A stretch of 64,000 nucleotides of DNA from an uncultured Gemmatimonadota bacterium (GCA_964637695.1 CAZWVF010000003.1:14838-78837), one strand, 5' to 3'. Positions 1 to 22,007 are shown, counted from the first letter of the stretch. Notes: a model not told the origin generated them from the sequence alone. A program made the numbers and translations.

Positions 1-710
1 GCCAGCTTCTCCAGAGATGTGTCAGACCTGGGGCCCTCATCCCGATCCACGATGACGGGATCGCCCTTTCGCTGAGGTATCACCACCGGCACGATCTCGT
101 CATTGAATCGGCCGGTGTTCCAGGCGGTTATCGCTCTCCGGTGGCTTTCGAGAGCGAACCGGTCCTGATCCTCCCTCTCGATACCATACGATTCAGCCAC
201 ATTCTCCGCGGTTGCTCCCATACTTACGGGTGGATGCTGTGCGGCAAGCTTGGGATTGGTAAAGTGCCATCCTATGGTGGAATCACAGATCTCCTGGTTT
301 CGATCGAACGCAGTTTCGGCTTTGGAGATAACGAGGGGCGAGCGGCTCATACTTTCAACGCCGCCGGCAATGAAGACGTCTCCCATTCCTGTTTTGACGG
401 CCATCGCCGCCTGGTTGATGGCCTCCAGGCCCGATCCACAAAGACGATTCAGGGTGCATCCTGCGATCTCCACAGGGAAGCCTGCCAGAAGCGCTGCCAT
501 CCTGGCCACGTTGCGATTATCCTCACCGGCCTGGTTCGATGCGCCGAACAGGACGTCCTCCAGCAGCCCGGGATCGATCCCGCTCCGATCGGCCGCCTCC
601 CGCATGACCAGGGCTGCCATGTCATCCGGGCGGATATCTTTCAGAGCACCGCCATATCTGCCGACAGGAGTTCTTACTGCTTCGACGATAACCGCCTCGC
701 GAGATTCCAT
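1..710 (-). CDS. acetyl-CoA acetyltransferase / 3-ketoacyl-CoA thiolase. Only the N-terminal ~236 aa are present because the gene runs off the window edge.
   Basis: Reverse-complement translation from ATG (complement of 708-710) gives MESREAVIVEAVRTPVGRYGGALKD...NRLCGSGLEAINQAAMAVKTGMGDVFIAGGVESMS, typical of a thiolase N-terminus with the active-site Cys region. GAGGG RBS 9 nt upstream. Missing from the ORF track because no stop lies inside the window. The plus-strand ORFs 141..830 and 250..714 are its antisense shadows. Confidence 0.8.
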   Translation of the reverse strand, partial: MESREAVIVEAVRTPVGRYGGALKDIRPDDMAALVMREAADRSGIDPGLLEDVLFGASNQAGEDNRNVARMAALLAGFPVEIAGCTLNRLCGSGLEAINQAAMAVKTGMGDVFIAGGVESMSRSPLVISKAETAFDRNQEICDSTIGWHFTNPKLAAQHPPVSMGATAENVAESYGIEREDQDRFALESHRRAITAWNTGRFNDEIVPVVIPQRKGDPVIVDRDEGPRSDTSLEKL

Positions 711-861
711 ATGATCATAACCCTCATATCGGGTGTGCGACTCCGATTACTGCTTAACGGGGATGCTACATGTTGCAGACCATTTCGGCAATCTGTCCTG
801 CGCTCTTTCCATCTGATTCGGACAGGTTGACGCTCCGGCCGCAACCGCACTACGATATTCT

Positions 862-897: not shown

Positions 898-1575
898 ATG
901 AACCGGTTAACCCCGACTGCAGTGACAGATACGAAGATGGCCGATAACGAGACAGAAGCCAATTCCATATCAGGAGAACGATCAGCCGCCAAACTGGAGA
1001 AACTGCTGACTGTTGCGGCCGAACTGATGGCCGTGCAGGGTTACGACCAGACCTCTGTGCGCGACGTAGCGCGGGAAACGGGCTTCAGCCTGGCCGGGAT
1101 GTACTACTACTTCCAGAGCAAAGAGGATCTGCTGTACCAGATCCAGTACCGCACCTTTGACTCTCTGCTTCAGGAGCAGGAGGGCATCTCCAGGGGTGAG
1201 GGGAGTGCCGAGGAGAGGCTTCGTCTCTTCGTTCAGAATCATCTCTCATTCTACACCACGCATTTCAACGAGATGAAAGTCTGCACTTTCGAACTTCATT
1301 CCTTGAAGGATGAGCGATACACAACCATCGAGTCGCTCCGCCGGAAGAACTTCAAGATCGCCATGGAAATCGTAAGAGAGATCGTCGAGGGATCCGGCCG
1401 GCCGGATGACGGAGGAGAGGTTGTCCGTCATTACACGCTTTTCATTTTCGGAATGCTCAATTGGATTTTCATGTGGTTCGATCCGGAGCGCGATGCGCCT
1501 CTCGAAAAACTGAGTGACGAACTGGTACAACTGGCGCTGCACGGACTGCGGGACGGCAGTTCACGTGGTGCCTGA
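898..1575 (+). CDS. TetR/AcrR family transcriptional regulator
   Basis: N-terminal HTH signature LLTVAAELMAVQGYDQTSVRDVARETGFSLAGMYYYFQSKEDLL. Divergent from the thiolase gene. A palindromic operator candidate lies 29 bp upstream. Alternative start at M14 (position 937). Confidence 0.85.
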   Translation: MNRLTPTAVTDTKMADNETEANSISGERSAAKLEKLLTVAAELMAVQGYDQTSVRDVARETGFSLAGMYYYFQSKEDLLYQIQYRTFDSLLQEQEGISRGEGSAEERLRLFVQNHLSFYTTHFNEMKVCTFELHSLKDERYTTIESLRRKNFKIAMEIVREIVEGSGRPDDGGEVVRHYTLFIFGMLNWIFMWFDPERDAPLEKLSDELVQLALHGLRDGSSRGA

Positions 1576-1617: not shown

Positions 1618-2580
1618 ATGACACTCTTTCCTTCCAGACCAGCAAGTGAGTTCGATTTTCAGGAGATCCTGTACGAAAAGAAGGACCTCGTAGCCCGAAT
1701 AACGATAAACCGGCCGAAGGCTTACAATGCCTATACGACCCATACCCTCCAGGAACTGATCACGGCATTTACCGATGCTGCGAACGACGACGGAGTGGGG
1801 GTCATAATTTTCACAGGTGCGGGTGACAGGGCCTTTTGCACCGGGGGGGACGTCAAGGAGTACGCCTCGGTTTACACGCAGCGTCCGAGGGACTACTGGA
1901 AGTATATGGGTCTCTTCTCCGGTTATATCGAAAGCATCCTGAAAACCGGTAAGGTGACGATAGCGCGCCTGAACGGCATGGCGGTCGGAGGCGGGAATGA
2001 ATCGCAGCTTGCCTGTGATCTGGCCGTGATGGCCGATGACACTTATATCGCTCAGGTGGGAACGAGTGTGGGCAGTGTGGCCTGCGGTGGTGCCACCCAG
2101 TGGCTCTCCATAGTCGTCGGTGACCGTCGCGCCCGTGAGATCCTCTTTCTGAATCACAAGATACCAGCCGGGCAGGCGCTCGAATGGGGCCTGGTCAACC
2201 GGGTGGTCCCCAGAGACCGGTTGGATGAGGCGGTGGATGAGATGGCCCAGGAGCTGCTGGACAAATTCCCCGAATGCACACGCTACACAAAGGCGCAGCT
2301 CAATTACTGGAAAGAGTCAGTCTGGTACTCGACTGTCGGCCATGCACGTGACTGGCTCAGCACTCACTTCACATCAATGGAACCGTACGAGGGAATGACC
2401 GCCTTCGTGGAGAAGCGCCAGGCCCGTTATCGCGAACTTCGGGAGAAAGCAGCTTCAGGCGGCAGCAGTGAATTCCTGTGGGGACCCTACTCCCATACGT
2501 GCCAGGTATGCGGAGCCGCTGGTATTCCGGCAGAATTTGAATACTGCGGAGTGTGCGGGGCCAAACTGGAGAAAGAATAA
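1618..2580 (+). CDS. MenB/BadI-like crotonase-superfamily enzyme with a C-terminal CxxC-x11-CxxC zinc ribbon. Candidate 2-ketocyclohexanecarboxyl-CoA hydrolase (BadI) or dihydroxynaphthoyl-CoA synthase-type hydrolase.
   Basis: ILYEKKDLVARITINRPKAYNAYT...IFTGAGDRAFCTGGDVKEY...RLNGMAVGGGNESQLACDL closely follows the MenB/BadI pattern (MenB: ILYEK..GIAKITINRP..NAFRP...ILTGAGDKAFCSGGDQ). GGAAA RBS-like stretch before ATG 1618. C-terminal CQVCGAAGIPAEFEYCGVCGAKLEKE. Confidence 0.8.
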   Translation: MTLFPSRPASEFDFQEILYEKKDLVARITINRPKAYNAYTTHTLQELITAFTDAANDDGVGVIIFTGAGDRAFCTGGDVKEYASVYTQRPRDYWKYMGLFSGYIESILKTGKVTIARLNGMAVGGGNESQLACDLAVMADDTYIAQVGTSVGSVACGGATQWLSIVVGDRRAREILFLNHKIPAGQALEWGLVNRVVPRDRLDEAVDEMAQELLDKFPECTRYTKAQLNYWKESVWYSTVGHARDWLSTHFTSMEPYEGMTAFVEKRQARYRELREKAASGGSSEFLWGPYSHTCQVCGAAGIPAEFEYCGVCGAKLEKE

Positions 2581-2591
2581 AGGAGAGATCG

Positions 2592-3341
2592 ATGGAGCTG
2601 GGACTCGACGGCAGGGTTGCCCTTGTAACCGGAGGCGCAAGGGGGATAGGCGCAGCCATTTCACTGGAGCTGGCCCGCCAGGGATGCAGCATTGCGATTG
2701 TCGATATCAGCCCTGCAGATGCGATGAAAGACCTGATTGCCATGATCGATGAGCAGGGAGGCAGAACCCTGGTTCTGCAGTCGGACGTGTCGAAATTCGC
2801 TGAAGCCGAAAAATGTATTGAGTCGGTTCGGACAGATCTGGGAACTCTCGATATCGTGGTCTGCAATGCAGGCGTCAACAGGGATGGCGTTATCTGGAAG
2901 ATGACGGAGGAATTGTGGGATGAGGTTCTGGATATCAACCTGAAGGGCTGCTTCAATTTCTGCAGAGCTGCAGCCAGGGTTTTCCGCGAGCAGGGTCACG
3001 GCAAAATCGTGAATATCGCCTCGATCAACGGCCTGAGGGGCAAATTCGGGCAGAGCAACTATGCTGCTTCGAAGGGGGGCATAATCGCGCTGACCAAATC
3101 TGTCGCCGTTGAACTCGGTCGCTTCGACGTCAATGTCAATGCCGTGGCTCCAGGTATGGTCATGACCGATATGGCCGTTGACATGCCGCAGGAGTTTCTC
3201 GATCAGGCCATCGAAGAGACGGTTCTGGGTCGAATTGCCGAACCCGGGGAGATCGCACACCTGGTGGCATTTCTCTGTTCCGATTACGCCCGCCACATAA
3301 CAGGCGAAGTGATCAAGATAGACGGCGGACAGTATATCTGA
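2592..3341 (+). CDS. short-chain dehydrogenase/reductase (FabG/BadH-like 3-oxoacyl / 2-hydroxyacyl-CoA dehydrogenase)
   Basis: LDGRVALVTGGARGIGAAISLELARQGCSIAIVD Rossmann motif, NAG motif (VCNAGV) and catalytic YAASK. AAGGAGAG RBS at 2581-2588 before ATG 2592. The track ORF begins upstream at 2553, which is probably spurious. Confidence 0.85.
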   Translation: MELGLDGRVALVTGGARGIGAAISLELARQGCSIAIVDISPADAMKDLIAMIDEQGGRTLVLQSDVSKFAEAEKCIESVRTDLGTLDIVVCNAGVNRDGVIWKMTEELWDEVLDINLKGCFNFCRAAARVFREQGHGKIVNIASINGLRGKFGQSNYAASKGGIIALTKSVAVELGRFDVNVNAVAPGMVMTDMAVDMPQEFLDQAIEETVLGRIAEPGEIAHLVAFLCSDYARHITGEVIKIDGGQYI

Positions 3342-3377: not shown

Positions 3378-4151
3378 ATGAGTGAAAACAGTGAACTGAC
3401 CAGGTATGAGGTCCGCGAGGATGTAGCGTATATTACCCTCGACTCCCCTCCTTTGAATATCATGACCATTGCGATGATGGATGAGATCAGTGAACTGCTG
3501 GAGAAAGCCGAATCTGACCCATCGGTTAAGGCGGTAGCCTTCACTGCCGAAGGAAAGGCCTTCAGCGGCGGCGCAGACATCGGAGAGCACCGTCCCGAGC
3601 AGGTCGAAGGGATGATCGGTTCGTTCGGACGACTCTTTAATAAGCTGGGTACTCTGGAACTTCCGGTTGTCATGGCTGTGAACGGGGCAGCGCTGGGTGG
3701 TGGATTCGAACTGGTGATGATGGCGGATATCCTGCTGGCAACCCCTGAAGCCACATTTGGACAGCCCGAGATTCGACTCGGATTCTTCGCTCCCGCAGCA
3801 ATAGTCCGTCTGCCCGACCTGGTCGGGACTGCGCGGGCTATTGAGATCACCTGTTCGGGGAAAACGTATGCCGCTGCCGAAATGCGTGAGATGGGTGTGG
3901 TTACACAGATCGTTTCAGAGGAAAACCTGGAGGACACTCTGGAAACCGTACTGAAGGACTTTCGAAGGTCGAGTCCCCTGGTGATGAGAATGAATGTACG
4001 TACCTTGAAAAGTCTGAAAGGGATTGGATTTGTTGAAGCGCTGGCGGAAGCGGAAAAAGTATTCCTCGAGAAACTGATGGCGACTGAGGAGCCTATTGAA
4101 GGGATAGCCTCCTTTTATGAGAAGAGACGTCCGGAGTGGAAGAACAGGTGA
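3378..4151 (+). CDS. enoyl-CoA hydratase/isomerase (crotonase family; BadK/Dch-like)
   Basis: YITLDSPPLNIMTIAMMDEISELL...AVAFTAEGKAFSGGADI...AVNGAALGGGFELVMMAD are crotonase-fold motifs. GAGGAGAG RBS before ATG. Confidence 0.85.
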   Translation: MSENSELTRYEVREDVAYITLDSPPLNIMTIAMMDEISELLEKAESDPSVKAVAFTAEGKAFSGGADIGEHRPEQVEGMIGSFGRLFNKLGTLELPVVMAVNGAALGGGFELVMMADILLATPEATFGQPEIRLGFFAPAAIVRLPDLVGTARAIEITCSGKTYAAAEMREMGVVTQIVSEENLEDTLETVLKDFRRSSPLVMRMNVRTLKSLKGIGFVEALAEAEKVFLEKLMATEEPIEGIASFYEKRRPEWKNR

Positions 4152-4193: not shown

Positions 4194-6443
4194 ATGCACA
4201 CGGTTGTAATAGGCGCCGGGGCTCTGGGAGGCCTGATAGGTGCTCAACTCCACATGGCTGAGAAGAAAGTCACGATGGTCGAGATCAATCAGGCCAGAGC
4301 ACGCCTGATCAACGAGACGGGTATTTACGTCTCAGAGGGGCAGAAGGGGGAACGGTGCGTTCCGGTTACGGTAGCTACTTCCTGCGAAGGCCTCGAACCT
4401 GCCGATCTGATATTCGTGGCTGTGAAGAGCTATCAGACCGATAAAGCAACTCGCAGCGTGCTGCCCCTGATGGGTCCCGACAGCATGGTTCTTTCAATGC
4501 AGAACGGCATTGGGAACACAGATGTGATGGCAGACATCATCGGACCCGAACGCGTGCTCTGCGGAATCACGTATCACAGTATCCAGCATACGGGGCCTAA
4601 CAGACTTCGCTTCAGACCGGGTATAAAGCCGATCCAGATTGCACCGTTTGACGGGAAAATCACACCAGGGATAGAGTCGATCGGTGAACTCTTCACAAGT
4701 GCAGGCCTGGCAACAGAGATTCTTGAGAATATCGATAACGTCATATGGCAGAAACTCCTGCATAACGCCGTCGTTAATCCCGTCTCCGCTCTTTCAGGTC
4801 TGACGTGCAGGGAACTGCTCGATGACGAAGACCTTCAGGACTTCATGCGCGACATGTGCATGGAAATCATCGAGGTTATGAAGGCAAAGGGGATCCCGAT
4901 TATCGACGACGAGGATCCATACAGGCCGGTAACGAATTCACAGAGAGCTCTGGGCAAGAACCGTCCTTCGATGTGGCAGGACCTCGCCCGTGGATTTCGG
5001 ACGGAAGTCGATGCACTCAACGGTGCAATCGTCGTTGAGGCTGAGCGCCTCGGCCTGCCGGCGCCACTCAACCGGACCATCGTCCGTCTGATCCATTCAA
5101 GTGAACGTCAGGGATTCATGCGCCGGGAAGAGATCGCAGAGACACTGAAAAGCGCTGCCGGAGTCATGCCCATACCTGTCTCTCGTCCTACAGTACCGGA
5201 GAAACAGGAAGACATCCCGTCCGGCAGGATCCCCCTGCAGACCGCGCCGGCATTGAAGGAACTGATACGTGAATATTATCAGGAGATCCAGAAGGGCAGT
5301 GAAAATCCCGACCAGCTGTTGGCGTGGGCATCCGGAATGGCTCCTGTTGAGATCATCCGGGCGATGGGGATACTGCCCTACTTCCCGGAAAATCATGCAG
5401 CACTTATCGGATCGAGCCGGCAATCGGGCAAATACATCGCCAGAGCTCTGGCAGAGGGATTTTCGCAATTCGCAAGTACTGCGATGACCTGTGACATAGG
5501 AGCCGTGCTGGTCGGCGACAGTCCTCTGGTGAGTGTTTACGATATCAAGGGTCCTCCCAGAGCCGATGTCATGGTATTCAGCACCAACTTCGGACAGAGG
5601 CTCATCAGGTGGTTCGACTTCTACGGCAGCCACTTCGGTGTTCCCGTTCTGGGGCTTCATCCTCCGGTCGCCCTGAGTGACGTGGGCAAGATCGAAGTCG
5701 ACGCTGCAGCCGGACAGATGATGCGTCTGACTGCAGAGCTGGAAGAGATTGCCGGCAGGAAGCTCGATCCTGACCGTCTTGCAGAAGTCGTAGACCTGTC
5801 GGCACAGTCATCCCGGTTGTGGAGCGAGATACTCGATCTGGCCCGCAACGTGCCGTCTCCGTTCACGACTTTCGATCTCTTCGTGCATATGGCCCCGATG
5901 GTGATGATGAGAGGGACTCAGGAGGCGATAGAGTACTACACGATCCTGAAGGCTGAAATTGAAGAACGGGTCTCCAGCATGCAGGCCGCGGTTCCCGGAG
6001 AGAGATACCGATTTTACTGGGAGGGTCCGCCGGTGTGGGGTGCCCTGCGCACTCTGGCCAAAATGTTCTTCGACAACCGGATTGCCCTGATCGTTTCAAC
6101 ATACTGCAACATGTGGGCGCTCGAGGGACTCGATCCTGGCAACCCGTTCGAGAGCATGGCCCGTACCTATACGGGGATCTTTCCGAACCGCTCCGATGAT
6201 TTCAAGGCAACTTACCTGGTATCGCAGTTTGAGGAACACGGTATAGACTGCGTCGTATATCATGACGGTCGCACCGCTTCGGAGCATAGTAACGTCCGCT
6301 ACGGGCTCGAATTGAAGTTGAGAAGGAAGACCGGCCTGCCTTCCATAGTGATAGAGGCCGATTCGCATGACCTCCGTCTCTTCTCTGCACCTGAAGTCGA
6401 GCGTCAGCTGACCGATTTTCTGGAACAACAGGAGGAACTTTGA
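4194..6443 (+). CDS. fusion protein. N-terminal 2-dehydropantoate 2-reductase (KPR/ApbA)-like NAD(P)-binding domain (~310 aa), then a C-terminal benzoyl-CoA reductase / 2-hydroxyacyl-CoA dehydratase-family catalytic subunit (~430 aa).
   Basis: N-terminus MHTVVIGAGALGGLIGAQL (Rossmann) ... DALNGAIVVEAERLGLPAPLNRTIVRLI (KPR C-terminal helix region). From ~aa 335: LKELIREYYQEIQK...MAPVEIIRAMGILPYFPENHAALIGSSRQ..., which is paralogous to the ORF at 8217..9479 and has the HgdB/BcrB-family look. Continuous ORF with no stop or frameshift. An internal GGAG-2nt-ATG at ~aa 320 has poor RBS spacing. Confidence 0.7.
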   Translation: MHTVVIGAGALGGLIGAQLHMAEKKVTMVEINQARARLINETGIYVSEGQKGERCVPVTVATSCEGLEPADLIFVAVKSYQTDKATRSVLPLMGPDSMVLSMQNGIGNTDVMADIIGPERVLCGITYHSIQHTGPNRLRFRPGIKPIQIAPFDGKITPGIESIGELFTSAGLATEILENIDNVIWQKLLHNAVVNPVSALSGLTCRELLDDEDLQDFMRDMCMEIIEVMKAKGIPIIDDEDPYRPVTNSQRALGKNRPSMWQDLARGFRTEVDALNGAIVVEAERLGLPAPLNRTIVRLIHSSERQGFMRREEIAETLKSAAGVMPIPVSRPTVPEKQEDIPSGRIPLQTAPALKELIREYYQEIQKGSENPDQLLAWASGMAPVEIIRAMGILPYFPENHAALIGSSRQSGKYIARALAEGFSQFASTAMTCDIGAVLVGDSPLVSVYDIKGPPRADVMVFSTNFGQRLIRWFDFYGSHFGVPVLGLHPPVALSDVGKIEVDAAAGQMMRLTAELEEIAGRKLDPDRLAEVVDLSAQSSRLWSEILDLARNVPSPFTTFDLFVHMAPMVMMRGTQEAIEYYTILKAEIEERVSSMQAAVPGERYRFYWEGPPVWGALRTLAKMFFDNRIALIVSTYCNMWALEGLDPGNPFESMARTYTGIFPNRSDDFKATYLVSQFEEHGIDCVVYHDGRTASEHSNVRYGLELKLRRKTGLPSIVIEADSHDLRLFSAPEVERQLTDFLEQQEEL

Positions 6444-6497
6444 ATCGTTCTATTGATAAGACAGGAAACGGGCAGGTTCCGACAAACGGGTGTTGCC

Positions 6498-7283
6498 ATG
6501 TCTGAAGAGAAGAGGATTGTAGCAGCGATTGACGTGGGTACGGAATGTATCAAGGCGGTCGTCATGGATGAAACTACCGCCATCCTGGGTCGTTCCATTA
6601 TTCCTGCCAGCGGTTATTTCCGGCATCGTGTCAAGGAAGCTCTCGACGGCGCACTCGATGACGCCCGATTGGAGCATTCTGATATCGATTCAATTTCGTC
6701 AACCGGTTTCGGCGCCAGCTGTGTCGAGGAGGCGGCAGCTCAACTGGGCGAGACTGCATGTCACGCACGGGGTGCGTTCTTCCACCATAAAGGTGCCATG
6801 TCTGTCATAGACATCGGCGGCCGCGATCCAAAGGTCCTTTACGTCAGCGAAGAGGGTCAGGTCCTCGAGGCCCACATGGTGAGACGGTGTGCGGTCGGTA
6901 TAGGCACCTTTCTCATGTTCACCGCCCGCCACCTCGACGTTCATCCGACACGCCTTCAGGAGCTGGCGGCCGAGGCCGGAGAACCGGCGGACATCGGAAG
7001 TTACTGTTCGGTATTCGCAGGATCGGAGGTCCTCGAACAGCTCCGGGAAGGTACCAGTCGTGAGAATATCGCCTCGGGAGCAATGCGCTCGGTGGCCGAG
7101 AGGATCTTCGAGATCGGCGGCCTGCAGGAACCGGTACGCGTTACAGGCGGAGTCGCTGAATATTTTCCAGGGGTGCTCAAATCTCTCTCTGAAATGACAG
7201 GGATCGAGATCGAGGCTGTTCCGGAACCGATCATGGCGGGAGCAATCGGAGCTGCCCTGAAGAGTCTGAACAGCAGTTCTTGA
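6498..7283 (+). CDS. BcrAD/HgdC-family ATPase subunit (CoA-substrate-specific enzyme activase fold) with both [4Fe-4S]-bridging Cys motifs
   Basis: MSEEKRIVAAIDVGTECIKAVVMDE (ASKHA phosphate-1 motif), VRRCAVGIGTFLM and IGSYCSVFAGSEVL (conserved Cys pair), IMAGAIGAAL at the C-terminus. The track ORF starts 45 nt earlier (6453). ATG 6498 is the chosen start. Confidence 0.8.
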   Translation: MSEEKRIVAAIDVGTECIKAVVMDETTAILGRSIIPASGYFRHRVKEALDGALDDARLEHSDIDSISSTGFGASCVEEAAAQLGETACHARGAFFHHKGAMSVIDIGGRDPKVLYVSEEGQVLEAHMVRRCAVGIGTFLMFTARHLDVHPTRLQELAAEAGEPADIGSYCSVFAGSEVLEQLREGTSRENIASGAMRSVAERIFEIGGLQEPVRVTGGVAEYFPGVLKSLSEMTGIEIEAVPEPIMAGAIGAALKSLNSSS

Positions 7284-7293
7284 ATTTCCATCG

Positions 7294-8094
7294 TTATATA
7301 TCCATGATGATGTCTGCTTGTCCGGTACTCTCTTTCGCAAACAGTGCTGCTCCAAAAGCTCCGCTGAGTTGTGGTTCAGGCGGTATCAGCACCTCTCCAC
7401 GTATATACTTCTTCATCACTTCGAGCATGATGTCATTGTAGGCCACGACCCCTCCCGTCATCACAACAGGTCCCTCCAGGGTATCCATTTCGATCACCCT
7501 TCTGGCGACAGACTCATATGCACTCTTTACCATGTCTTCCAGATTCTCACCCTCTCTTATCCTCGTGAGTATCTCTGAGGAAGCGAAAACGGTGCAGAAA
7601 CTGCTCAAAGCCACATCGTTTTCAGACTTCCGGGCCAGTTCGTTCATCTGGTCCATCTCGATCTGCAGTTTGCCGGCGATCTCTTCCAGAAATGTGCCTG
7701 TCCCCGCTGCACACTTGCGGTTCATCTTGAAACCGGTTCGTTTCCCTTCGCCGTCCAGCTTTATCACTTTGGTATCCTGGCCTCCGATATCTATTACGGT
7801 AATCTGTCGAGGGAAGTGATGAAATGCTCCTTTTGAGTGGCAGGCGATCTCTGTTTTCACATTATCGGCAAGCGTGACATTCTTCCGGCCGAAACCTGTA
7901 GCAGTGATGTGCTGAATCGATTCCCGCTCAGTGGAGCTTGAAAAGAGCAGAGCCTCAAATGTCGAATGGATGGACGATTGCAGATCGGCACCGGAACGCC
8001 CGATGGAGTGTCCGATTATCTCAGCTTTCTCATCTATCAGAACAGCTTTGATGTAAGATGTGCCGACGTCTATGCCTGCAGAGAGTCCAGCCAC
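7294..8094 (-). CDS. second BcrAD/HgdC-family ATPase subunit. It is convergent with the previous gene and stops 10 bp apart from it.
   Basis: MAGLSAGIDVGTSYIKAVLIDE, KMNRKCAAGTGTFLE, LSSFCTVFASSEIL, LSGAFGAALFA are canonical activase/BcrD motifs, including the Cys pair. Confidence 0.8.
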   Translation of the reverse strand: MAGLSAGIDVGTSYIKAVLIDEKAEIIGHSIGRSGADLQSSIHSTFEALLFSSSTERESIQHITATGFGRKNVTLADNVKTEIACHSKGAFHHFPRQITVIDIGGQDTKVIKLDGEGKRTGFKMNRKCAAGTGTFLEEIAGKLQIEMDQMNELARKSENDVALSSFCTVFASSEILTRIREGENLEDMVKSAYESVARRVIEMDTLEGPVVMTGGVVAYNDIMLEVMKKYIRGEVLIPPEPQLSGAFGAALFAKESTGQADIIMDI

Positions 8095-8216
8095 GGTTAT
8101 CTCCGATCTGCTGTCTCGGTTTCGACTTTACAGCAGCAGGTTTAGGATACCACCTCCGCTCCCCTTTCTGTTACTGTCTAATTATCATCCCTCTGTTTTT
8201 CAGTGTGGTCACTCGT

Positions 8217-9479
8217 ATGGAGCAGATCGATATGGCAGAAGAGAAGAAACAGCTCAGAAAGAAAATTGAAGCGACGACTGAGATGGCCCGGATAATGGGC
8301 GAATACTTTTATGAACTGGATAAGGCAGCGAAGTCACCCGAAAAGAAAGTGGCATGGTGCACCAGTGTCGGTCCCGCGGAGCTGCTGCGTGCAATGGGAT
8401 TCTACGTTCACTTTCCCGAGAACCACGGCGCCATACTGGGAAGCAGCCGGATGGCCTCCGACCTGATCCCCTATGCAAACGCTATCGGTTACTCGCCCGA
8501 TATCTGTTCATACCTGACCTCCGATGTCGGGGCATATCTGCAGGGAGTCACTCCTCTCTCCAGGGTATATGAGGGAATTGAAAGCATACCTGAACCAGAT
8601 GTCCTGGTGTTCAATACCAACCAGTGCAGGGCCGTTCAGGACTGGCTTGCCTGGTTTGGCAGGGAGTTCGACGCTCCGGTTCTGGGAATACATACACACA
8701 GAGGGATATCGGATGTTACCAACCTCCACATAAATTCGATAACCGCACAACTGGAGGCACTGGTCAATCCACTGGAGGAAATCATGGGAAGTCCTCTGGA
8801 TCCCGCCGAGCTGGAAAGGGTGGTGGGACTCTCCCGTGAATGTTCTGAATTATGGAAAAAGGTTCTGGATACGGCAGCAGCAAGGCCGTCTCCATTCACT
8901 TTCTTTGACGGTACCATTCACATGGGTCCGGCGGTCGTTCTGCGTGGAACCCAGCCGGCAATAGACTACTACAAACTGTTGCTGGCCGAACTTGAATCGA
9001 GAATATCCAGTGGTGAAGGGGCGGTAGAGGGAGAAGAGTTCAGACTTTACTGGGAGGGGATGCCGATATGGGGCAGGCTGCGCGCTCACTCCGAACTCTT
9101 TGCCTCCAACCGTGCGTGCGTGCTTGCCTCCACATACTGCAACAGCTGGATCTTCACCCGGTTCGATGGAGCTGATCCCTTCAAAAGCATGGCAAGGGCG
9201 TATACTGAACTATTCATCGTCCGTTCCGACGAGATAAAGGAGCAGTATATAAAGGAGATGTTCGACACCTTCCAGATCGATGGCATCATCTACCACGATG
9301 CCAGGACCTGTCTCGACAACACCAACAGCCGGTTCGGCATGCCTCAGAGACTGGAGGAGGAAACGGGTATACCGAGCCTGACCATAAATGGTGACCTGAA
9401 CGACCTCCGGTGTCTCAGTGATGAACAGACCAATACCAGTATCGAAGCGTTCATAGAGCAGCTCGAGGAGATGCGATAG
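8217..9479 (+). CDS. benzoyl-CoA reductase / 2-hydroxyacyl-CoA dehydratase-family catalytic subunit (paralogue of the C-terminal domain of 4194..6443)
   Basis: MEQIDMAEEKKQLRKKIEATTEMARIMGEYFYELDKAAKSPEKKVAWCTSVGPAELLRAMGFYVHFPENHGAILGSSRM. It shares the FPENH block and overall collinearity with the fused subunit. The track ORF extends to 8058 with a low-complexity Cys/Leu-rich N-terminus that overlaps the divergent gene and is judged spurious. Start at ATG 8217 or 8232. Confidence 0.75.
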   Translation: MEQIDMAEEKKQLRKKIEATTEMARIMGEYFYELDKAAKSPEKKVAWCTSVGPAELLRAMGFYVHFPENHGAILGSSRMASDLIPYANAIGYSPDICSYLTSDVGAYLQGVTPLSRVYEGIESIPEPDVLVFNTNQCRAVQDWLAWFGREFDAPVLGIHTHRGISDVTNLHINSITAQLEALVNPLEEIMGSPLDPAELERVVGLSRECSELWKKVLDTAAARPSPFTFFDGTIHMGPAVVLRGTQPAIDYYKLLLAELESRISSGEGAVEGEEFRLYWEGMPIWGRLRAHSELFASNRACVLASTYCNSWIFTRFDGADPFKSMARAYTELFIVRSDEIKEQYIKEMFDTFQIDGIIYHDARTCLDNTNSRFGMPQRLEEETGIPSLTINGDLNDLRCLSDEQTNTSIEAFIEQLEEMR

Positions 9480-9480
9480 C

Positions 9481-11559
9481 ATGCTCGATGCACTCTTCTT
9501 TCCGAAATCGGTTGCCGTAATCGGCGCATCGACAAAAGATCTGTCAATAGGCAACAGGATCATCAGGAACCTGCACGACTTCGGTTACAAAGGCTCCATT
9601 TATGCCATCAATCCCAGGGGAGAAGAGGTCAGAGGGCTGGAACCATTCGCGTCCATACTCGATGTTCCAGACGATGTTGAGCTGGTGCACATCGTTATCC
9701 CCTCGAAATATGTCCCCCAGGCTGTTGATGACTGCGGGAAGAAGGGTGTCAGGGTAGCGATCATCAACACTGCCGGTTTCAAAGAGGTGGGAGGGGAAGG
9801 TGTTGAGCTGGAGGATCAGGTTGTCGCCAAAGCCGGTGAGTACGGTATCAGGATTTTCGGACCGAACTGCCAGGGGATTATCAACACCGATCCCGATATA
9901 AGGGCTTACTGCAACTTCACATTCACACGACCTTCAGAAGGTTCCATCTCCATCGTTGCCCAGAGTGGTGGTGTAGGGGAGGTGCTGAACCAGCGATTCT
10001 CAGAGCTGGATGTTGGAGTCAGGATGTACGCCTCCAACGGCAATGCCTGCGACATTTCCATCCCCGAAGTAATCCGCTACTGGGGATCGGATGAGAAGAC
10101 CAGAGTGATCGTGGTTTACATAGAGAGTCTTGCCGATCCGCTCGAGTTCATGGAGGCAGCCAGGGAGGTAGCTGCCGGCAAGCCTGTCCTCGGCATGAAA
10201 GCCGGCCGGACGGCAGAAGGTGCCAGGGCTGTCTCCTCCCACACCGGAGGTCTGGCTCAGCAGGAGATCGCGATAGAACTGATATTCAATAAGACCGGTA
10301 TCGTGACCTTCCGGGACCAGGAGGAACTGTGTCAGGCGGCGGTGGCCTTTGCTTCTCAACCTGTTCCCGGTGGTAACAGGGTAGGGCTGATTACCAATAC
10401 CGGTGGACCGGCCATTATCGCGACAGACGAGCTGGTAGATGCCGGCCTGGTTATCCCTCCACTCTCTGATAAGGCCGAAAACATTCTTAAGGAAAAGCTG
10501 CATGCTGCTGCCTCCATTTCCAATCCGATAGACGTACTGGCAACTGCAGGAGCGGAACACTTCAAAGCGGCCGCTGATGTATTGATGGATGAAGAGGAGA
10601 TAGACAGCATATACATTAATTTCGTCACGCCTTTCTTCGTCGATAACGAAAGTGTCGCGCGGGTACTGGTAGAGGTTAACCAGGCCGGTTTCAAGCCCGT
10701 TGTCTGCAATCTCATGACCGACAGGGTTGAGTGGGCCGATACGCTCAGGATCCTGAAAGAGGGAGGGATCCCCTGTTACAGTTTCGCCGAAACTGCCGCA
10801 AAGGCTCTGGCTGCCATGACACGTTATGGCGGGCTGCGCTCCAGGAATGTGGGCGAATCCCCTGCCTTTGATGATATAGATCGTGTGCAGGCGGAGAAAG
10901 TCATTGAAAACGCCACGACCGGTGGAACAGGAATGTTGACTACCACGCAGGTACACAGACTGCTGGAGGCATACGGGATACCTGCCGCGGCCTGGAAGGT
11001 GGCAACATCCGCATCGGAAGCTGTCGCCGCAGCAGGGGAAATAGGTTTTCCGGTAGTTGTGAAAGTCGATTCCACGTCGATTGTTCACAAATCCGACGAA
11101 GGTGGTGTAGCAGTTGATCTGAGCGATGCAGAATCGGTTGAATCTGTTGTGAACGGGATGAACGAGAGATTTGGAGCCGACGATCTCAGGTTCCTGGTTC
11201 AGAAATATGTGCCGGGTGGGAGGGAAGTGATAATAGGGGCGACGGCTGAAGAAGGTCTGGGACACCTTATCATGATCGGACTGGGTGGCATCCTTGTTGA
11301 AGTTCTCAAGGATGTGTCGTTCGCGATAACCCCTGTGACGGAGTATGAAGCCCGGGAGCTGATGAGTTCACTTAAATCATATCCTGTACTGGAAGGGATT
11401 CGGGGTGAGGAGGGGGTCAACAGGGATGCACTGATCGGAATCGTGCTGAGGATCTCACAGATGGTTACCGATCATCCCTCCATTCGGGAGATTGACCTGA
11501 ATCCCGTTATCGCCTGTGAGAAGTATGTGTCTGTTGTCGATGCCAGGATCGTAATCTGA
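9481..11559 (+). CDS. acyl-CoA synthetase (NDP/ADP-forming), fused alpha+beta domains (Acd type)
   Basis: N-terminal CoA-binding VAVIGAS...IYAINP, succinyl-CoA-synthetase-like flavodoxin domain, then C-terminal ATP-grasp domain (GFPVVVKVDSTSIVHKSDEGGVAVDL). The start overlaps the stop of the upstream gene (TAGcATG), so translational coupling is likely. Confidence 0.85.
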   Translation: MLDALFFPKSVAVIGASTKDLSIGNRIIRNLHDFGYKGSIYAINPRGEEVRGLEPFASILDVPDDVELVHIVIPSKYVPQAVDDCGKKGVRVAIINTAGFKEVGGEGVELEDQVVAKAGEYGIRIFGPNCQGIINTDPDIRAYCNFTFTRPSEGSISIVAQSGGVGEVLNQRFSELDVGVRMYASNGNACDISIPEVIRYWGSDEKTRVIVVYIESLADPLEFMEAAREVAAGKPVLGMKAGRTAEGARAVSSHTGGLAQQEIAIELIFNKTGIVTFRDQEELCQAAVAFASQPVPGGNRVGLITNTGGPAIIATDELVDAGLVIPPLSDKAENILKEKLHAAASISNPIDVLATAGAEHFKAAADVLMDEEEIDSIYINFVTPFFVDNESVARVLVEVNQAGFKPVVCNLMTDRVEWADTLRILKEGGIPCYSFAETAAKALAAMTRYGGLRSRNVGESPAFDDIDRVQAEKVIENATTGGTGMLTTTQVHRLLEAYGIPAAAWKVATSASEAVAAAGEIGFPVVVKVDSTSIVHKSDEGGVAVDLSDAESVESVVNGMNERFGADDLRFLVQKYVPGGREVIIGATAEEGLGHLIMIGLGGILVEVLKDVSFAITPVTEYEARELMSSLKSYPVLEGIRGEEGVNRDALIGIVLRISQMVTDHPSIREIDLNPVIACEKYVSVVDARIVI

Positions 11560-11600: not shown

Positions 11601-13154
11601 GTGGCTGAATGGCTGAACCTTGGAGAGATATTAAGGGTAAATGCGGGCAAGTTCCGGGGGAAGATATGCCTGAAGGATGCAGAGCGAAGCCTTACTTTCG
11701 AAGAGGTCAACTCCAGGGTCAACCGTCTGGCTCAGGGGTTCCTGGATATCGGGCTGAAAAAGGGAGATCGTGTGGCGGTCTTCCTCGATAACTCGGTCGA
11801 GATCTGTGAAGTCTATTTTGCAGCAGCCAAAACCGGTGTCGTGGTTGCACCGATCAATTTCCGTCTCGATCCGAAGACAGTCTGTTATATTACCGACAAT
11901 TCCGATGCCAGGGCGCTGGTTGTGCACGATGAGTGGACGCCGATGTTCGATGAGATGAAGGGTGATCTGCCGCGTGTCGAACATTTCCTCAGCGTTGGTG
12001 AAGAGAGTTCCGGATGGACTGATTATGAAAGTTTTCTGAGCAGTTACCCCGATAAGGAACCACATGCAGCGGTCCTGCCCTCCGATCCATGGTTGCAGCC
12101 GTACACCTCAGGTACTACAGGGGTACCGAAGGGTATTGTCAGGTCCCACGAATCGTATATCGCCTTCTATCTGATCAACGCCGGTGATTTCGGTTTCACG
12201 AGCCGGGACATCTGCCTGAACGTCATGCCCCTCTGTCATGTGAACTCCACCTTCTTCACATTCACATTCACATATATAGGAGGCGCGGCGTATATCCACC
12301 CGGCCAGATCTTTCCAGCCACTGGAGATACTCGAAGTTATCGAGAGAGAGAAGATCACCTTCATATCCCTGATCCCGACCCACTATAACATCATCCTGAA
12401 CGCTCCAAGGGAGGAGGCCGAGAAGTACGACGTTTCCTCGATACGAAAACTTCTCTGTTCCTCAGCCCCTGTATTCGCCGAATGTAAAAAAGCCGTGATG
12501 GAGTTCTTCCCGGACGCCGAGCTCTATGAGGCATATGGTTCAACAGAGGCCGGCATAGTGACCACCCTCATGCCGTGGGATCAGATGAGTCATCTTGGAT
12601 CAATCGGAAAGGAATCGGCCGGTACAGACACAATCAAACTGCTCGACGAGGATGGCAATGAGGTCCCCGTGGGAGAGGTCGGGGAGATCTACTCCCGCAG
12701 CCCGATGATGTTCACCGAGTACTACAAGATGCCTGAGATGACCAGGATCTCATTCAGGGGTGATTATTTCTCAGCGGGTGATATGGGCAGAAAAGATACC
12801 GATGGTTACTACAGCATCGTCGACCGGAAGGACAACATGATCATCACCGGCGGTGAGCATGTTTACCCATCGGAAGTGGAGAGTGTCATATGCTCCCACC
12901 CGGGAGTTTTCAGTGCGGCGGTGATCGGACTGCCCCACGAGAAATGGGGTGAGGCAGTTACTGCCATCGTGGTTCCCAGGGATGATCATTCTCTGGAAGA
13001 GGAAGAGATTATCACTCATTGTGCCGGTGAACTGGCGTTATTCAAAAAGCCGAAGGCGGTAATATTCATTTCACAGGATGAGATGCCCACAACGGGCAGC
13101 GGCAAGATACTGCACCGGGTACTTCGAGAACGCTTCAGTGGCGGGCAGACCTGA
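11601..13154 (+). CDS. AMP-forming acyl-CoA ligase (aromatic/alicyclic acid-CoA ligase, BadA/AliA-like)
   Basis: AMP-binding signature YTSGTTGVPKGIV, YGSTEAG, GEIYSRSPMMFTEYYK, the hinge D...ITGGEHVYPSEVE, and the C-terminal GKILHRVL lysine motif. Confidence 0.85.
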   Translation: MAEWLNLGEILRVNAGKFRGKICLKDAERSLTFEEVNSRVNRLAQGFLDIGLKKGDRVAVFLDNSVEICEVYFAAAKTGVVVAPINFRLDPKTVCYITDNSDARALVVHDEWTPMFDEMKGDLPRVEHFLSVGEESSGWTDYESFLSSYPDKEPHAAVLPSDPWLQPYTSGTTGVPKGIVRSHESYIAFYLINAGDFGFTSRDICLNVMPLCHVNSTFFTFTFTYIGGAAYIHPARSFQPLEILEVIEREKITFISLIPTHYNIILNAPREEAEKYDVSSIRKLLCSSAPVFAECKKAVMEFFPDAELYEAYGSTEAGIVTTLMPWDQMSHLGSIGKESAGTDTIKLLDEDGNEVPVGEVGEIYSRSPMMFTEYYKMPEMTRISFRGDYFSAGDMGRKDTDGYYSIVDRKDNMIITGGEHVYPSEVESVICSHPGVFSAAVIGLPHEKWGEAVTAIVVPRDDHSLEEEEIITHCAGELALFKKPKAVIFISQDEMPTTGSGKILHRVLRERFSGGQT

Positions 13155-13185: not shown

Positions 13186-14253
13186 ATGGAAGATGCGATG
13201 ACCATCAGAGGATGGATGATGACAGGTGCCGGTCAGCCTTTCGAAGAAGGCTCGATTCCGGTCGAATCGATACAGCCGGGTGAAGCTCTCATCGAAGTTG
13301 CCGGATGCGGTGTCTGTCATACAGATATCTCCTTCCTGCATTTTGGTGTCAAGACGCGCGCCGGGCTTCCCCTGGTCCTGGGGCATGAAATCAGCGGTAC
13401 GGTTGTGGAGGTCGGCGATGGGGTGGACGCTTCACTGGCCGGCAAACCGGTCCTTGTGCCGGCTGTCCTGCCATGCGGTGAATGCGAATTATGCAGGTCG
13501 GGTGACCTCAGAATCTGTCGTGCACAGATAATGCCCGGCAATGACCGGCATGGGGGCTTCGCATCTCATGTTGTTGTGCCGGCTCGTTATCTATGTCCGG
13601 TCGATGATACGGTACTGGCAGATCACAAACTGTGGGAGCTGGCAATCGTATCAGATGCCGTAACCACACCGTTTCAGGCTGTCAGACTTTCCAACCTCAA
13701 GGAGGACGATCTGGCGGTGGTTATCGGAACAGGTGGGATCGGGATCCATGCTGTGCAGATAGCAGCGGCGGTGGGAGCGAAAGTAGTGGCTCTCGATATT
13801 GATGATGTCAAACTGGATGTGGCTTCCAGGCATGGTGCCGATGCCGTTATCAATGTATCCGGTCTGGATATCAAAGAGATCAGGGGAAACCTCAAAGAAG
13901 AAGTATCACGCATCGGTGCACCGAAATTGAAATGGAGGATATTCGAGACATCCGGAGTGGGAGCGGGGCAGGAGCTGGCCTACTCCCTGCTCAATTTCGG
14001 AGCTCATCTGGCAGTTGTCGGTTTCACGATGGACAAGCTGGAGTTGAGGTTGAGCAATCTGATGGCATTCGATGCAACCGCCATGGGGAACTGGGGCAGC
14101 GATCCGACGCTCTATGCCGAAGTGCTCGACTGGATAGCCGACGGTAGAATCCAGGTTAAGCCATTTATTGAAAAACATCCTCTAAGTTCGATTAACGAGG
14201 TGTTTGATTCGGTGCATGCAGGAGAACTTCAGGGCAGGGCAGTTCTCGTTTAA
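13186..14253 (+). CDS. Zn-dependent alcohol dehydrogenase (MDR family; possibly a 6-hydroxycyclohexene-carbonyl-CoA dehydrogenase Had-like or secondary alcohol dehydrogenase)
   Basis: GCGVCHTDISF and GHEISGTVVEVG are catalytic Zn ligand motifs. The structural-Zn Cys cluster is CGECELCRSGDLRIC. Rossmann motif VIGTGGIGIHAVQIAAAVGAKV. Confidence 0.85.
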   Translation: MEDAMTIRGWMMTGAGQPFEEGSIPVESIQPGEALIEVAGCGVCHTDISFLHFGVKTRAGLPLVLGHEISGTVVEVGDGVDASLAGKPVLVPAVLPCGECELCRSGDLRICRAQIMPGNDRHGGFASHVVVPARYLCPVDDTVLADHKLWELAIVSDAVTTPFQAVRLSNLKEDDLAVVIGTGGIGIHAVQIAAAVGAKVVALDIDDVKLDVASRHGADAVINVSGLDIKEIRGNLKEEVSRIGAPKLKWRIFETSGVGAGQELAYSLLNFGAHLAVVGFTMDKLELRLSNLMAFDATAMGNWGSDPTLYAEVLDWIADGRIQVKPFIEKHPLSSINEVFDSVHAGELQGRAVLV

Positions 14254-19455: not shown

Positions 19456-19479
19456 GAATGTAAACTCCCTTGTTCTTTA

Positions 19480-20790: not shown

Positions 20791-20832
20791 CTCATGCTCC
20801 TTTAACCCGATCTTTAAGAGAATCCGGGTGAA

Positions 20833-21960: not shown

Positions 21961-22007
21961 ATTTACTTCCTCCCGCAATTCGTGTGCAGCGCTTGCTACA
22001 ATATACT

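Follow-up and report, generated by a model that had tools for sequence, protein, structure and literature searches.

A ketopantoate-reductase-type module fused to a cluster-less 2-hydroxyacyl-CoA dehydratase paralogue in an uncultured Gemmatimonadota bacterium: a candidate arylpyruvate-converting system

Introduction

We analysed a stretch of 64,000 nucleotides from an uncultured Gemmatimonadota bacterium (GCA_964637695.1 CAZWVF010000003.1:14838-78837; the whole stretch is called the window below), in which an open reading frame (ORF) at 4194..6443 (+) encodes a protein of 749 aa. Its translation, Pfam and NCBIfam matches, and conservation indicate a ketopantoate reductase (KPR/ApbA) module, a linker, and a domain of the HGD-D family that lacks the iron–sulfur cluster site and is designated HGD-D'. 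The locus raises the question of what a KPR-type oxidoreductase does when it is covalently joined to a relative of the radical enzymes that dehydrate 2-hydroxyacyl-CoAs or reduce benzoyl-CoA. The 2-hydroxyacyl-CoA dehydratases act on (R)-2-hydroxyacyl-CoAs, and the clostridial pathways described by Buckel and co-workers pair a D-2-hydroxyacid dehydrogenase with the dehydratase and its ATP-dependent activator; FldH, LdhA, and HgdH fill the role of the 2-oxoacid reductase in such pathways.

Our answer is that a KPR-type (R)-2-hydroxyacid dehydrogenase is tethered here to an ATP-activated 2-hydroxyacyl-CoA dehydratase, and that together they would convert arylpyruvates to cinnamoyl-type CoA esters. 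We regard this explanation as about evenly poised between right and wrong. The general chemistry, on whatever 2-oxoacid, is fairly probable, an estimate that combines this explanation with a rival in which the substrate is not aromatic. The identity of the system rests on comparative evidence from many loci, and its function, including the catalytic activities, the order of reduction and CoA activation, the pairing of the subunits, and the substrate, is predicted from sequence and gene context.

A fused reading frame conserved in many genomes

The ORF begins with ATG, follows a Shine-Dalgarno-like GGGAG ~8 nt 5' of the start, and is open throughout all 749 aa. Pfam assigned residues 4-153 to ApbA (1.6e-35), residues 179-302 to ApbA_C (3.2e-33), and residues 382-744 to HGD-D (1.4e-50), all with scores far exceeding the gathering scores. 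At the subfamily level, the protein scored 254.7 bits against NCBIfam TIGR00745 apbA_panE (cutoff 141.35), and it fell below every NCBIfam equivalog cutoff tested (KPR, HadB, BcrB, and BzdO). With 30 family members as input, AlphaFold2 (AF2) modelled the full-length protein as two well-folded domains (mean pLDDT 82.9, pTM 0.56). Residues 317-344 between them (5142..5225 (+)) form a disordered linker with pLDDT <50 and low conservation in the family, and the length of the linker is modelled as ~30-40 aa, in agreement with the ~30-aa linker proposed in the preliminary description of this locus.

A search over 5.8 billion proteins gave 394 hits at E <= 1e-10. Among the best 120 of these, listed as clusters, all 120 were 748-806 aa long, contained the same three Pfam domains, and shared 59-92% identity with the query; their sources were NCBI, JGI, ENA, and Logan assemblies. 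In a scan of GTDB with one genome per species, 109 species genomes encoded the fusion, in most of the listed loci across nearly the full query length. The hosts belong to Gemmatimonadota, Acidobacteriota, Krumholzibacteriota, Eisenbacteria, Myxococcota (including metagenome-assembled genomes (MAGs) of Anaeromyxobacter), and other groups, and one of the genomes is a closed 6.45-Mb chromosome. Since clustering at 50% identity left only ~2 full-length representatives, the fusion family is, by sequence similarity, one compact orthologous group.

The preliminary description had left room for a gene-calling artefact and had named a search for the same architecture in databases as a way to examine it. 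At least 120 protein clusters and 109 GTDB genomes carry the fusion, and this conservation refutes the suspicion. An assembly, frameshift, or gene-calling artefact joining two separate genes is hardly conceivable, because the fusion is conserved across clusters from independent sources and across genomes that include a closed chromosome, and because the reading frame is uninterrupted. The statement that this architecture was not known for class I benzoyl-CoA reductases (BCRs) or 2-hydroxyacyl-CoA dehydratases also held, as literature searches gave no characterized case. They found no description of a KPR-dehydratase fusion or module, of a KPR together with a BCR, or of a 2-hydroxyacyl-CoA dehydratase in Gemmatimonadota. 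An HgdC-like gene in a Geobacter paper was considered and found to be unrelated to the module.

The KPR module looks catalytically intact

The KPR/ApbA-type NAD(P)H oxidoreductase module comprises residues 1-306 (4194..5111 (+)), as delimited by alignments with KPR structures in the PDB, family conservation, alignment with PanE-like proteins, and Foldseek. The dinucleotide motif GAGALGG at residues 7-13 is at least 90% conserved in the family. N104, K187, S259, D263, and E271 are equivalent to the catalytic and substrate-binding residues Asn98, Lys176, Ser244, Asp248, and Glu256 of the E. coli enzyme, a mapping that was obtained from the PDB alignments and reproduced by a MAFFT alignment with an E. 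coli PanE sequence. In an alignment of 30 members, N104, K187, S259, and E271 were all invariant, and the full five-residue set was invariant or nearly so. Thus none of the catalytic residues and no part of the dinucleotide motif, the loss of which the preliminary description had named as grounds for giving up its proposal, has disappeared, and its claim of a complete KPR module is borne out by Pfam and TIGR00745 as well as by these conserved positions. H190, K255, and R257, which adjoin the substrate Ser site, are invariants specific to this family. Foldseek matched the N-terminal half to structures of KPR and D-mandelate dehydrogenase, including PDB 3wfi and 5x20, with target-normalised TM-scores of 0.87-0.91. 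The module looks catalytically intact, and activity is predicted for it.

A Glu residue that ends strand beta2 is the usual sign of NADH rather than NADPH. E30 occupies the end of beta2 in the module and was an invariant Glu among 30 diverse members, which suggests a preference for NADH over NADPH. To our knowledge, the chemistry of the KPR family is always the NAD(P)H-dependent reduction of 2-oxoacids to D/(R)-2-hydroxyacids. NADH-dependent D-2-hydroxyacid dehydrogenases of this family include L. lactis PanE and E. faecium D-mandelate dehydrogenase (bioRxiv 10.1101/2024.01.05.573888).

The best 120 fusion clusters are named '2-dehydropantoate 2-reductase' in the databases, and once 'hypothetical protein'. 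The fusion protein did not score as a true 2-dehydropantoate 2-reductase: NF005091, the best equivalog, gave 191.6 bits (cutoff 252), and none of the others reached its cutoff either. In the window and related loci, the fusion gene is accompanied by genes for CoA-ester metabolism and not by panB/C/D. Because the equivalog cutoffs failed and the neighbours are not panB/C/D, the database name is probably a misannotation, which touches at least 120 clusters and probably several hundred database entries in all. The KPR domain of the window shares 37-39% identity with genuine PanE-like proteins, including P0161, its nearest standalone relative, which is encoded beside panB, and only 23-27% with the standalone KPRs that belong to the unfused modules described below. 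It shares the fold, the dinucleotide motif, and the Asn/Lys/Ser/Asp/Glu set with characterised enzymes of the KPR family (PDB 3wfi, 3wfj, and 5x20; E. coli PanE; T. kodakarensis KPR), and differs from them in its fusion to HGD-D, in the family-specific H190/K255/R257, and in having no pantothenate genes beside it.

A cluster-less HGD-D' domain and its cluster-bearing partner

The HGD-D' domain comprises residues 347-749 (5232..6440 (+)) and has a HadB/BzdO-like fold according to phmmer alignments with 3o3m_A, 9g87_A, and 8s02_A and to Foldseek, which matched the C-terminal half to the HadB alpha subunit with a target-normalised TM-score of 0.89 and also to MbdO and BzdO. The ligands of the substrate-facing [4Fe-4S] cluster in BzdO are Cys95/128/380 (PMC11971306). 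In the phmmer alignments, the three canonical Cys are replaced by S428, G467, and A695 in the fused domain, and its orthologues from GTDB genomes contained Cys at these positions in 0/79, 0/79, and 7/79 cases. The family alignment showed no Cys conserved anywhere in the domain, and the loop 424-438, which would hold the first cluster ligand, was disordered in the AF2 model. Since all three cluster ligands are gone, the fused HGD-D' has no site for the canonical cluster and is not the catalytic radical subunit. The preliminary description had assigned it that role; the ligands are found instead in a partner encoded at 8217..9479.

This partner HGD-D subunit (+), which was assigned by alignment to HadB, MbdO, and BzdO, is presumed to be catalytic. 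Its ORF is listed from 8058, and the probable start is M54 at 8217. It matched PF06050 at 2.4e-61, kept all three cluster Cys (50/50 orthologues at every position), and was 42% identical to the fused HGD-D' domain along the whole length. The E-values of the fused domain and the partner were 1e-39 and 8.5e-50 to HadB, and 2e-12 and 2e-30 to MbdO. By these comparisons, HadB, which is the alpha subunit of 2-hydroxyisocaproyl-CoA dehydratase, is nearest to both paralogues, and BCR subunits are further away. The HGD-D fold of component D of the 2-hydroxyacyl-CoA dehydratases was present in both the fused domain and the partner. The distant alpha/beta pair of those enzymes, in which both subunits carry Fe-S clusters, was not found, the two subunits being 42%-identical alpha-type paralogues of which one is cluster-less. 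A family III CoA-transferase was not seen in the window or related loci, which contain ligases instead.

Two ATPases accompany the two HGD-D proteins. ATPase1, an activator of the HgdC/BcrAD type, is encoded at 6453..7283 (+) with a probable start at ATG 6498 (PF01869; TIGR00241, 165.7 bits, cutoff 125.4). ATPase2, a second HgdC-type protein assigned by Pfam and TIGR00241 (227.7 bits, cutoff 125.4), is encoded at 7294..8094 (-). The two are 39% identical, and both candidate cluster-bridging Cys are present in each. ATPase2 lies on the strand opposite to the rest of the operon, divergent from the partner gene and separated from it by an intergenic region of ~120 bp (window 7294..8216), and is thereby inverted relative to most Gemmatimonadota loci. 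The divergent order of ATPase2 and the partner recurs in L020 and in the metagenome contigs L092, L093, L100, L111, and L124. Because it is common to these loci, the inversion is an inherited arrangement and not an assembly error.

The fusion complex and the benzoyl-CoA ring reductase

Membership of the fusion in a class I BCR, one of the enzyme types named in the preliminary description, was not supported. A canonical Bzd-type BCR set, assigned with NCBIfam, is encoded separately in the window at 17783..21978 (-). It consists of BzdN (20833..21978 (-); 486 bits, cutoff 454), BzdO (19480..20790 (-); 692 bits, cutoff 449), and two reductase ATPases (18655..19455 and 17783..18658, both (-)), the latter of which passes BzdQ (441 bits, cutoff 380). 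A canonical Bcr- or Bzd-type set is also next door in many related loci. Since the window has this separate set, the fusion complex is, on the evidence of gene content, not the ring reductase. In equivalog tests, the fusion protein scored 124.9 bits for BcrB (cutoff 486.55) and 45.4 bits for BzdO (cutoff 448.6), and the partner scored 125.7 and 60.4 bits, all below the cutoffs, and both paralogues are nearer to HadB. BzdN holds an [8Fe-9S] cluster (PMC11971306); a second cluster of this kind is absent from the fused domain, which has no conserved Cys. The two distinct ATPases are the only BCR-like feature found in the fusion module.

A rival explanation takes up this feature and supposes that the two HGD-D proteins and two ATPases form a BCR-like ATP-consuming reductase of a substituted aryl- or dienoyl-CoA such as hydroxybenzoyl-CoA, with the KPR module reducing a keto tautomer with NAD(P)H. 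The gene set indeed mimics class I BCRs, and the genes lie between those for a Dch-like hydratase and Had and beside an enzyme resembling the molybdenum (Mo) enzyme 4-hydroxybenzoyl-CoA reductase (4-HBCR). In locus L086, a second fusion is followed by a Mo enzyme of the xanthine dehydrogenase (XDH) family whose best NCBIfam match is 4-HBCR alpha. In addition, the ATP-dependent tetrahydronaphthoyl-CoA (THNCoA) reductase of the naphthalene pathway is most active with NADH when assayed in cell extracts (PMC12016498). However, both paralogues are far below the BcrB and BzdO cutoffs and closer to HadB, the electron-storing second cluster of BzdN has no counterpart in the fused subunit, and a canonical BCR is already present in the window and many related loci. 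With its one HGD-D and one ATPase, the ancestral standalone module is encountered away from aromatic clusters, and the KPR-family chemistry known to us is all 2-oxoacid reduction. We therefore regard a ring-reducing or dienoyl-CoA-reducing function as quite improbable. Identity with THNCoA reductase itself was rejected since the hosts and scores do not fit, and that enzyme is kept as a remote analogy only; a review on polycyclic aromatic hydrocarbons that treats it mentions no fused oxidoreductase (PMC12016498).

Gene presence was counted in 39 related fused-type loci in which the fusion has 7 kb or more of flanking sequence on either side, and a 4-HBCR-like Mo enzyme was present in 26 of them. 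This frequency and locus L086 gave rise to the idea that the module is obligately coupled to the Mo enzyme, for instance by donating electrons to it at the expense of ATP. The idea was rejected, since compact standalone operons have no Mo enzyme and KPR is unfit for one-electron chemistry. The 4-HBCR-like enzyme of related loci scored 910 bits against TIGR03194, just under the cutoff of 994. In L001 (1394..5175), L002, L003, L005, L086, and L087, its FAD subunit is ~290 aa long and the match to the 4-HBCR beta model is confined to the first ~120 positions, so that these enzymes apparently do not have the [4Fe-4S] insertion that takes electrons from ferredoxin. The 2Fe-2S and Mo subunits are fused (940-960 aa) in many loci.

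Unfused modules and a second fusion

When metagenomes were scanned with the partner subunit, at least 584 relatives were obtained. Many contigs contained a compact operon in the order KPR-like protein, ATPase, HGD-D, ADP-forming acyl-CoA synthetase (ACS), AMP-forming ligase, and thiolase; some of these operons have TRAP transporter genes 5' and otherwise housekeeping surroundings. The standalone HGD-D proteins are orthologous to the window partner (50-74% identity) and are annotated only as '2-hydroxyacyl-CoA dehydratase family protein'. The companions are as in the window (KPR-like protein, ADP-forming ACS, AMP-forming ligase, and thiolase), whereas the standalone modules have a single HGD-D, presumably forming a homodimer, a single ATPase, and a separate KPR of another lineage. 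A longer cluster in Bacteroidota, Ignavibacteria, and Chlorobi runs from BcrCBAD through ADP-forming ACS, standalone KPR-like protein, Had, Oah, Dch-like hydratase, HGD-D, one ATPase, thiolase, HCDH, acyl-CoA dehydrogenase (ACAD), MocA, and XdhC to the Mo enzyme.

A second fusion protein, P0123, was found in a Myxococcota MAG (L086). It is 728 aa long and 35% identical to the window protein, and its HGD-D domain keeps the three Cys and is 58-65% identical to a very large standalone family of ~412 aa in Bacteroidota, Ignavibacteria, and Chlorobi. In L086 (10001..18157), the gene for P0123 directly precedes those for a single ATPase, a Mo enzyme of the XDH family with three subunits, XdhC, and a MocA-like protein, and no CoA ligase, beta-oxidation, or BCR genes were found within 10 kb. 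In a neighbour-joining tree, the cluster-less fused domains formed one clade, sister to the cluster-bearing proteins, and the partners were intermixed with standalone forms inside the cluster-bearing group. The P0123 fusion is placed within the Bacteroidota/Ignavibacteria branch, where by its sequence it arose independently, and the ancestral form of the system appears to have been built from a single HGD-D gene.

The KPR protein thus accompanies the HGD-D/ATPase module in three ways as far as gene structures indicate: as a separate gene, fused to a cluster-bearing subunit, and fused to a degenerate paralogue. Because the link recurs in three forms, it is strong comparative evidence that the reductase and dehydratase activities belong to one pathway. 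Because the KPR lineage of the window differs from that of the standalone modules, the KPR family was recruited repeatedly.

These observations also bear on whether the KPR module might be a structural or regulatory appendage, such as a sensor of nucleotide or CoA, on a degenerate scaffold, or the whole fusion a non-essential relic. The cofactor site of the fused HGD-D' is already gone, binding of CoA as a regulator is recorded for an archaeal KPR (title of PDB 5ayv), and no interface between the domains appeared in AF2, all of which would suit an appendage. Nevertheless, the catalytic and dinucleotide residues are invariant across phyla at 50-90% identity, indicating purifying selection on catalysis, the unfused modules have kept their KPR genes, and recruitment of the family occurred at least twice. 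An appendage or relic is thus very improbable.

Proposed reaction sequence and its substrate

In our proposal, the N-terminal KPR module, probably with NADH, would reduce a 2-oxoacid to the (R)-2-hydroxyacid, and the CoA thioester would be made by the co-encoded AMP-forming (11601..13154) and/or ADP-forming (9481..11559) ligase. The pair of ATPase1 and ATPase2 would inject one electron into the dehydratase, where the single substrate-facing [4Fe-4S] cluster of the partner would carry out ketyl-radical dehydration to the 2-enoyl-CoA. The fused HGD-D' would most likely complete an alpha/alpha' heterodimer as its second, structural half and tether the reductase to the dehydratase. If the ligase acted first, the reductase would work on the 2-oxoacyl-CoA and the fusion would join consecutive steps. 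The leading substrates would be phenylpyruvate and 4-hydroxyphenylpyruvate from Phe and Tyr, and cinnamoyl- or coumaroyl-CoA would be processed by the hydratase, a short-chain dehydrogenase/reductase (SDR), and thiolase/DUF35 or a MenB-like hydrolase to (4-hydroxy)benzoyl-CoA, which would enter the Bzd pathway encoded next door. A hypothetical scheme from phenylpyruvate through phenyllactyl-CoA and cinnamoyl-CoA to benzoyl-CoA was drawn in a 2026 study, with the dehydratase unassigned and with formation of the CoA ester before reduction (PMC13416013).

The preliminary description had offered two functions for the nicotinamide-binding module. Delivery of hydride to the radical step is chemically unlikely in our view, since KPR, which has no flavin, cannot supply an Fe-S cluster with single electrons. 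Reduction of a 2-oxo compound comes closest to the explanation preferred here, but the target would most likely be the 2-oxoacid precursor of the dehydratase substrate rather than a product.

The choice of arylpyruvates as the leading substrates is based on genes characteristic of arylpyruvate metabolism that lie within 10 kb of the HGD-D gene. Genes for an IorA-like protein (alpha subunit of indolepyruvate:ferredoxin oxidoreductase (IOR)) were counted at 13 standalone and 2 fused loci, those for a PaaK-like aryl-acetate CoA ligase at 15 and 9, and those for aldehyde:ferredoxin oxidoreductase (AOR) at 9 and 1. Two IorA genes that were tested scored 785-787 bits against TIGR03336 (cutoff 651). 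The fused-type loci sit in benzoyl-CoA clusters with Had, BCR, usually a 4-HBCR-like Mo enzyme, hydratase, SDR, and thiolase/DUF35, and the presence of the 4-HBCR-like enzyme fits a 4-hydroxyphenyl intermediate derived from tyrosine. Since the IOR, PaaK, and AOR neighbours recur and 4-HBCR-like enzymes occur in the fused clusters, arylpyruvates lead as the candidate substrates.

The same chemistry may be applied to a non-aromatic substrate, namely 2-oxoglutarate via 2-hydroxyglutaryl-CoA to glutaconyl-CoA in the forward or reverse direction, or a branched-chain or other aliphatic 2-oxoacid. In the reverse version, which is plausible, glutaconyl-CoA from the lower benzoyl-CoA pathway would be converted to 2-oxoglutarate while the ADP-forming synthetase conserves ATP. 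2-Hydroxyglutaryl-CoA dehydratase is the founding member of HGD-D, and the pathway whose genes surround the fusion has glutaryl- and glutaconyl-CoA among its intermediates. The ADP-forming ACS, an enzyme type that usually runs towards ATP synthesis, is conserved in the module, the Bacteroidota cluster contains an ACAD resembling glutaryl-CoA dehydrogenase, and the invariant K255, R257, and H190 near the substrate Ser could bind a second carboxylate. The standalone operons that have no aromatic genes nearby point in the same direction. On the other hand, ACAD homologues occurred in only 4 fused-type loci, and AMP-forming ligases, which work only in the direction of the CoA ester, were the commonest ligase (27/39 fused loci) and are found in the standalone operon too. 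A reverse route would leave the recurrent IOR, PaaK-like, and AOR neighbours unexplained, and genes for glutaconyl-CoA decarboxylase were not seen. A non-aromatic substrate is therefore unlikely in our estimation, though it is the alternative that keeps the chemistry intact.

Several observations weigh against the arylpyruvate dehydratase proposal itself. The window contains no gene for IOR, a PaaK-like ligase, AOR, or an aminotransferase, and some standalone operons have no aromatic-metabolism genes nearby. Nine of the 39 loci have no partner HGD-D within 10 kb; these loci (L002, L003, L008, L009, L014, L015, L033, L034, and L037) contain the fusion and ATPase1 and are mostly from Krumholzibacteriota-like or unclassified MAGs. 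The 257-aa hydratase encoded directly 5' of the fusion may be the Dch of the benzoyl-CoA pathway, as its equivalent in the Bacteroidota cluster has Dch as the best match, and in that case only the fusion complex and the ligases would be left to explain. The characterised 2-hydroxyacyl-CoA dehydratases known to us all use a single homodimeric activator and a CoA-transferase, whereas the module has two different ATPases as in BCRs and ligases in place of the transferase. AF2, a structure prediction of the kind suggested in the preliminary description, folded both domains of the full-length protein well but gave no confident domain-domain interface (pTM 0.56). Finally, there is no obvious channelling benefit from the fusion, because reduction would directly precede dehydration only if the reductase took the 2-oxoacyl-CoA as its substrate.

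Comparison with known systems

The closest known systems are the phenyllactate dehydratase of C. sporogenes (FldH, FldA, FldBC, and FldI) and, related to it, the (R)-2-hydroxyisocaproyl-CoA dehydratase of C. difficile (LdhA, HadA, HadBC, and HadI; PDB 3o3m). The logic they share with the module, as deduced here from genes, runs from a 2-oxoacid through the (R)-2-hydroxyacid and its CoA ester to radical dehydration by HGD-D proteins that are primed by an HgdC-type ATPase. Like HadB, which both paralogues match best in sequence and fold, the partner keeps the three-Cys catalytic site. Unlike in the Fld and Had systems, where the reductase belongs to the D-2-hydroxyacid dehydrogenase family, the reductase of the window is a covalently fused KPR-family module. 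The second subunit is a cluster-less, 42%-identical paralogue rather than a distant beta subunit with a [4Fe-5S] cluster, two different ATPases take the place of one homodimeric activator, and CoA ligases that of the CoA-transferase. In place of fermenting clostridia, MAGs of Gemmatimonadota, Acidobacteriota, and Myxococcota are the hosts, and the product is predicted to be oxidised in the direction of benzoyl-CoA, whereas in the clostridia it is reduced. Class I BCRs (BcrCBAD, BzdNOPQ, and MbdONPQ; PDB 8s02, 9g87, and 9gai) have in common with the module the HGD-D fold, the set of two HGD-D proteins and two ATPases, and the benzoyl-CoA gene setting. The module differs from them in lacking an [8Fe-9S] or other second cluster and in having close paralogues as HGD-D subunits and not an N/O-type pair.

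A broader and more tentative proposal is an unrecognised aryl-lactate route by which Phe and Tyr carbon would enter the benzoyl-CoA pathway of non-fermenting soil and sediment bacteria through a single-cluster alpha/alpha' dehydratase whose degenerate subunit carries an NADH-dependent reductase. It is conceivable, if somewhat doubtful, that Gemmatimonadota, Acidobacteriota, Myxococcota, and Krumholzibacteriota convert arylpyruvate in this way through aryllactyl-CoA and cinnamoyl- or coumaroyl-CoA to (4-hydroxy)benzoyl-CoA. In such a route, the reductase may act directly on the 2-oxoacyl-CoA, which would make reduction and dehydration consecutive, tethered steps. If this is true, the BCR/2-hydroxyacyl-CoA dehydratase family of radical enzymes gains a widespread branch with different rules, the derived form of which is a heterodimer in which one subunit has swapped its Fe-S cluster for a nicotinamide-dependent reductase. 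The module is a concrete candidate for the unassigned alpha-dehydratase that links phenylpyruvate to benzoyl-CoA (PMC13416013), and it suggests an anoxic route for the breakdown of aromatic amino acids or aryl-lactates in abundant, mostly uncultured soil and sediment phyla.

Neighbouring genes

Among the 39 fused-type loci, ATPase1 was present in 39, the partner HGD-D, ATPase2, and Had in 30 each, the TetR regulator in 28, and the 257-aa hydratase adjoining the fusion and the SDR in 26 each. Downstream of the partner, the window encodes an ADP-forming ACS of 692 aa (9481..11559 (+); Pfam and NCBIfam), which is 56% identical to the ACS of the unfused Bacteroidota cluster and syntenic in the standalone operons. 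The gene after it encodes an AMP-forming acyl-CoA ligase of 517 aa (11601..13154 (+); Pfam; NCBIfam PRK06187, 444 bits, below the cutoff of 476), which has 58-64% identical copies in the standalone operons. Structural likeness of the ligase and thiolase was uninformative about the substrate, as the nearest structures were FadD13, FadD5, feruloyl-CoA synthetase, and generic thiolases. The next gene encodes Had, 6-hydroxycyclohex-1-ene-1-carbonyl-CoA dehydrogenase (13186..14253 (+); TIGR03201, 449.7 bits, cutoff 338.65). A protein of 831 aa with 2Fe-2S, 4Fe-4S, and FAD sites (14957..17452 (-)) resembles the small subunit of NADPH-dependent glutamate synthase and may be the partner that regenerates ferredoxin for the Bzd reductase.

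On the 5' side, the enoyl-CoA hydratase of 257 aa (3378..4151 (+)) matched Pfam ECH_1 and scored 156 bits against TIGR03189, below the cutoff of 292. It is predicted either to hydrate the product of the dehydratase or to be Dch, the dienoyl-CoA hydratase, and its equivalent in L087 had TIGR03189 as the best match with 214 bits. The SDR (2553..3341 (+); Pfam and NCBIfam) resembles FabG and acetoacetyl-CoA reductase and is a candidate 3-hydroxyacyl-CoA dehydrogenase. A MenB/BadI/Oah-like crotonase of 320 aa (1618..2580 (+)), a candidate C-C hydrolase, scored 189 bits for MenB, 187 for Oah, and 184 for BadI, all below the cutoffs, and has a C-terminal DUF7577 tail. In L001-L085, it never occurred together with the canonical 376-aa Oah (BamA-type) and was often accompanied by thiolase/DUF35. 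It may be a non-canonical ring-opening hydrolase in place of Oah.

The cluster opens with the gene for a TetR-family regulator (898..1575 (+); Pfam). At the left edge of the window, an ORF of 229 aa (141..830 (+)) had no Pfam match, and the opposite strand (78..566 (-)) showed weak similarity to thiolase (26% over 181 aa). The latter may belong to a thiolase gene running off the start of the window, matching the thiolase found there in related loci.

Just past the aromatic-degradation cluster, a HipA-like toxin kinase (HipA_C and Couple_hipA) is encoded at 22842..24074 (+). Further along, the window contains genes for a penicillin-amidase family protein (27003..29276 (-)), an M3 oligopeptidase (43507..45624 (+)), and a 923-aa protein with an M14 carboxypeptidase domain (46449..49220 (-)). 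An M14 peptidase is also encoded beside the module in L002 and in two standalone loci, and the peptidase genes may hint at a peptide- or amino-acid-degrading lifestyle.

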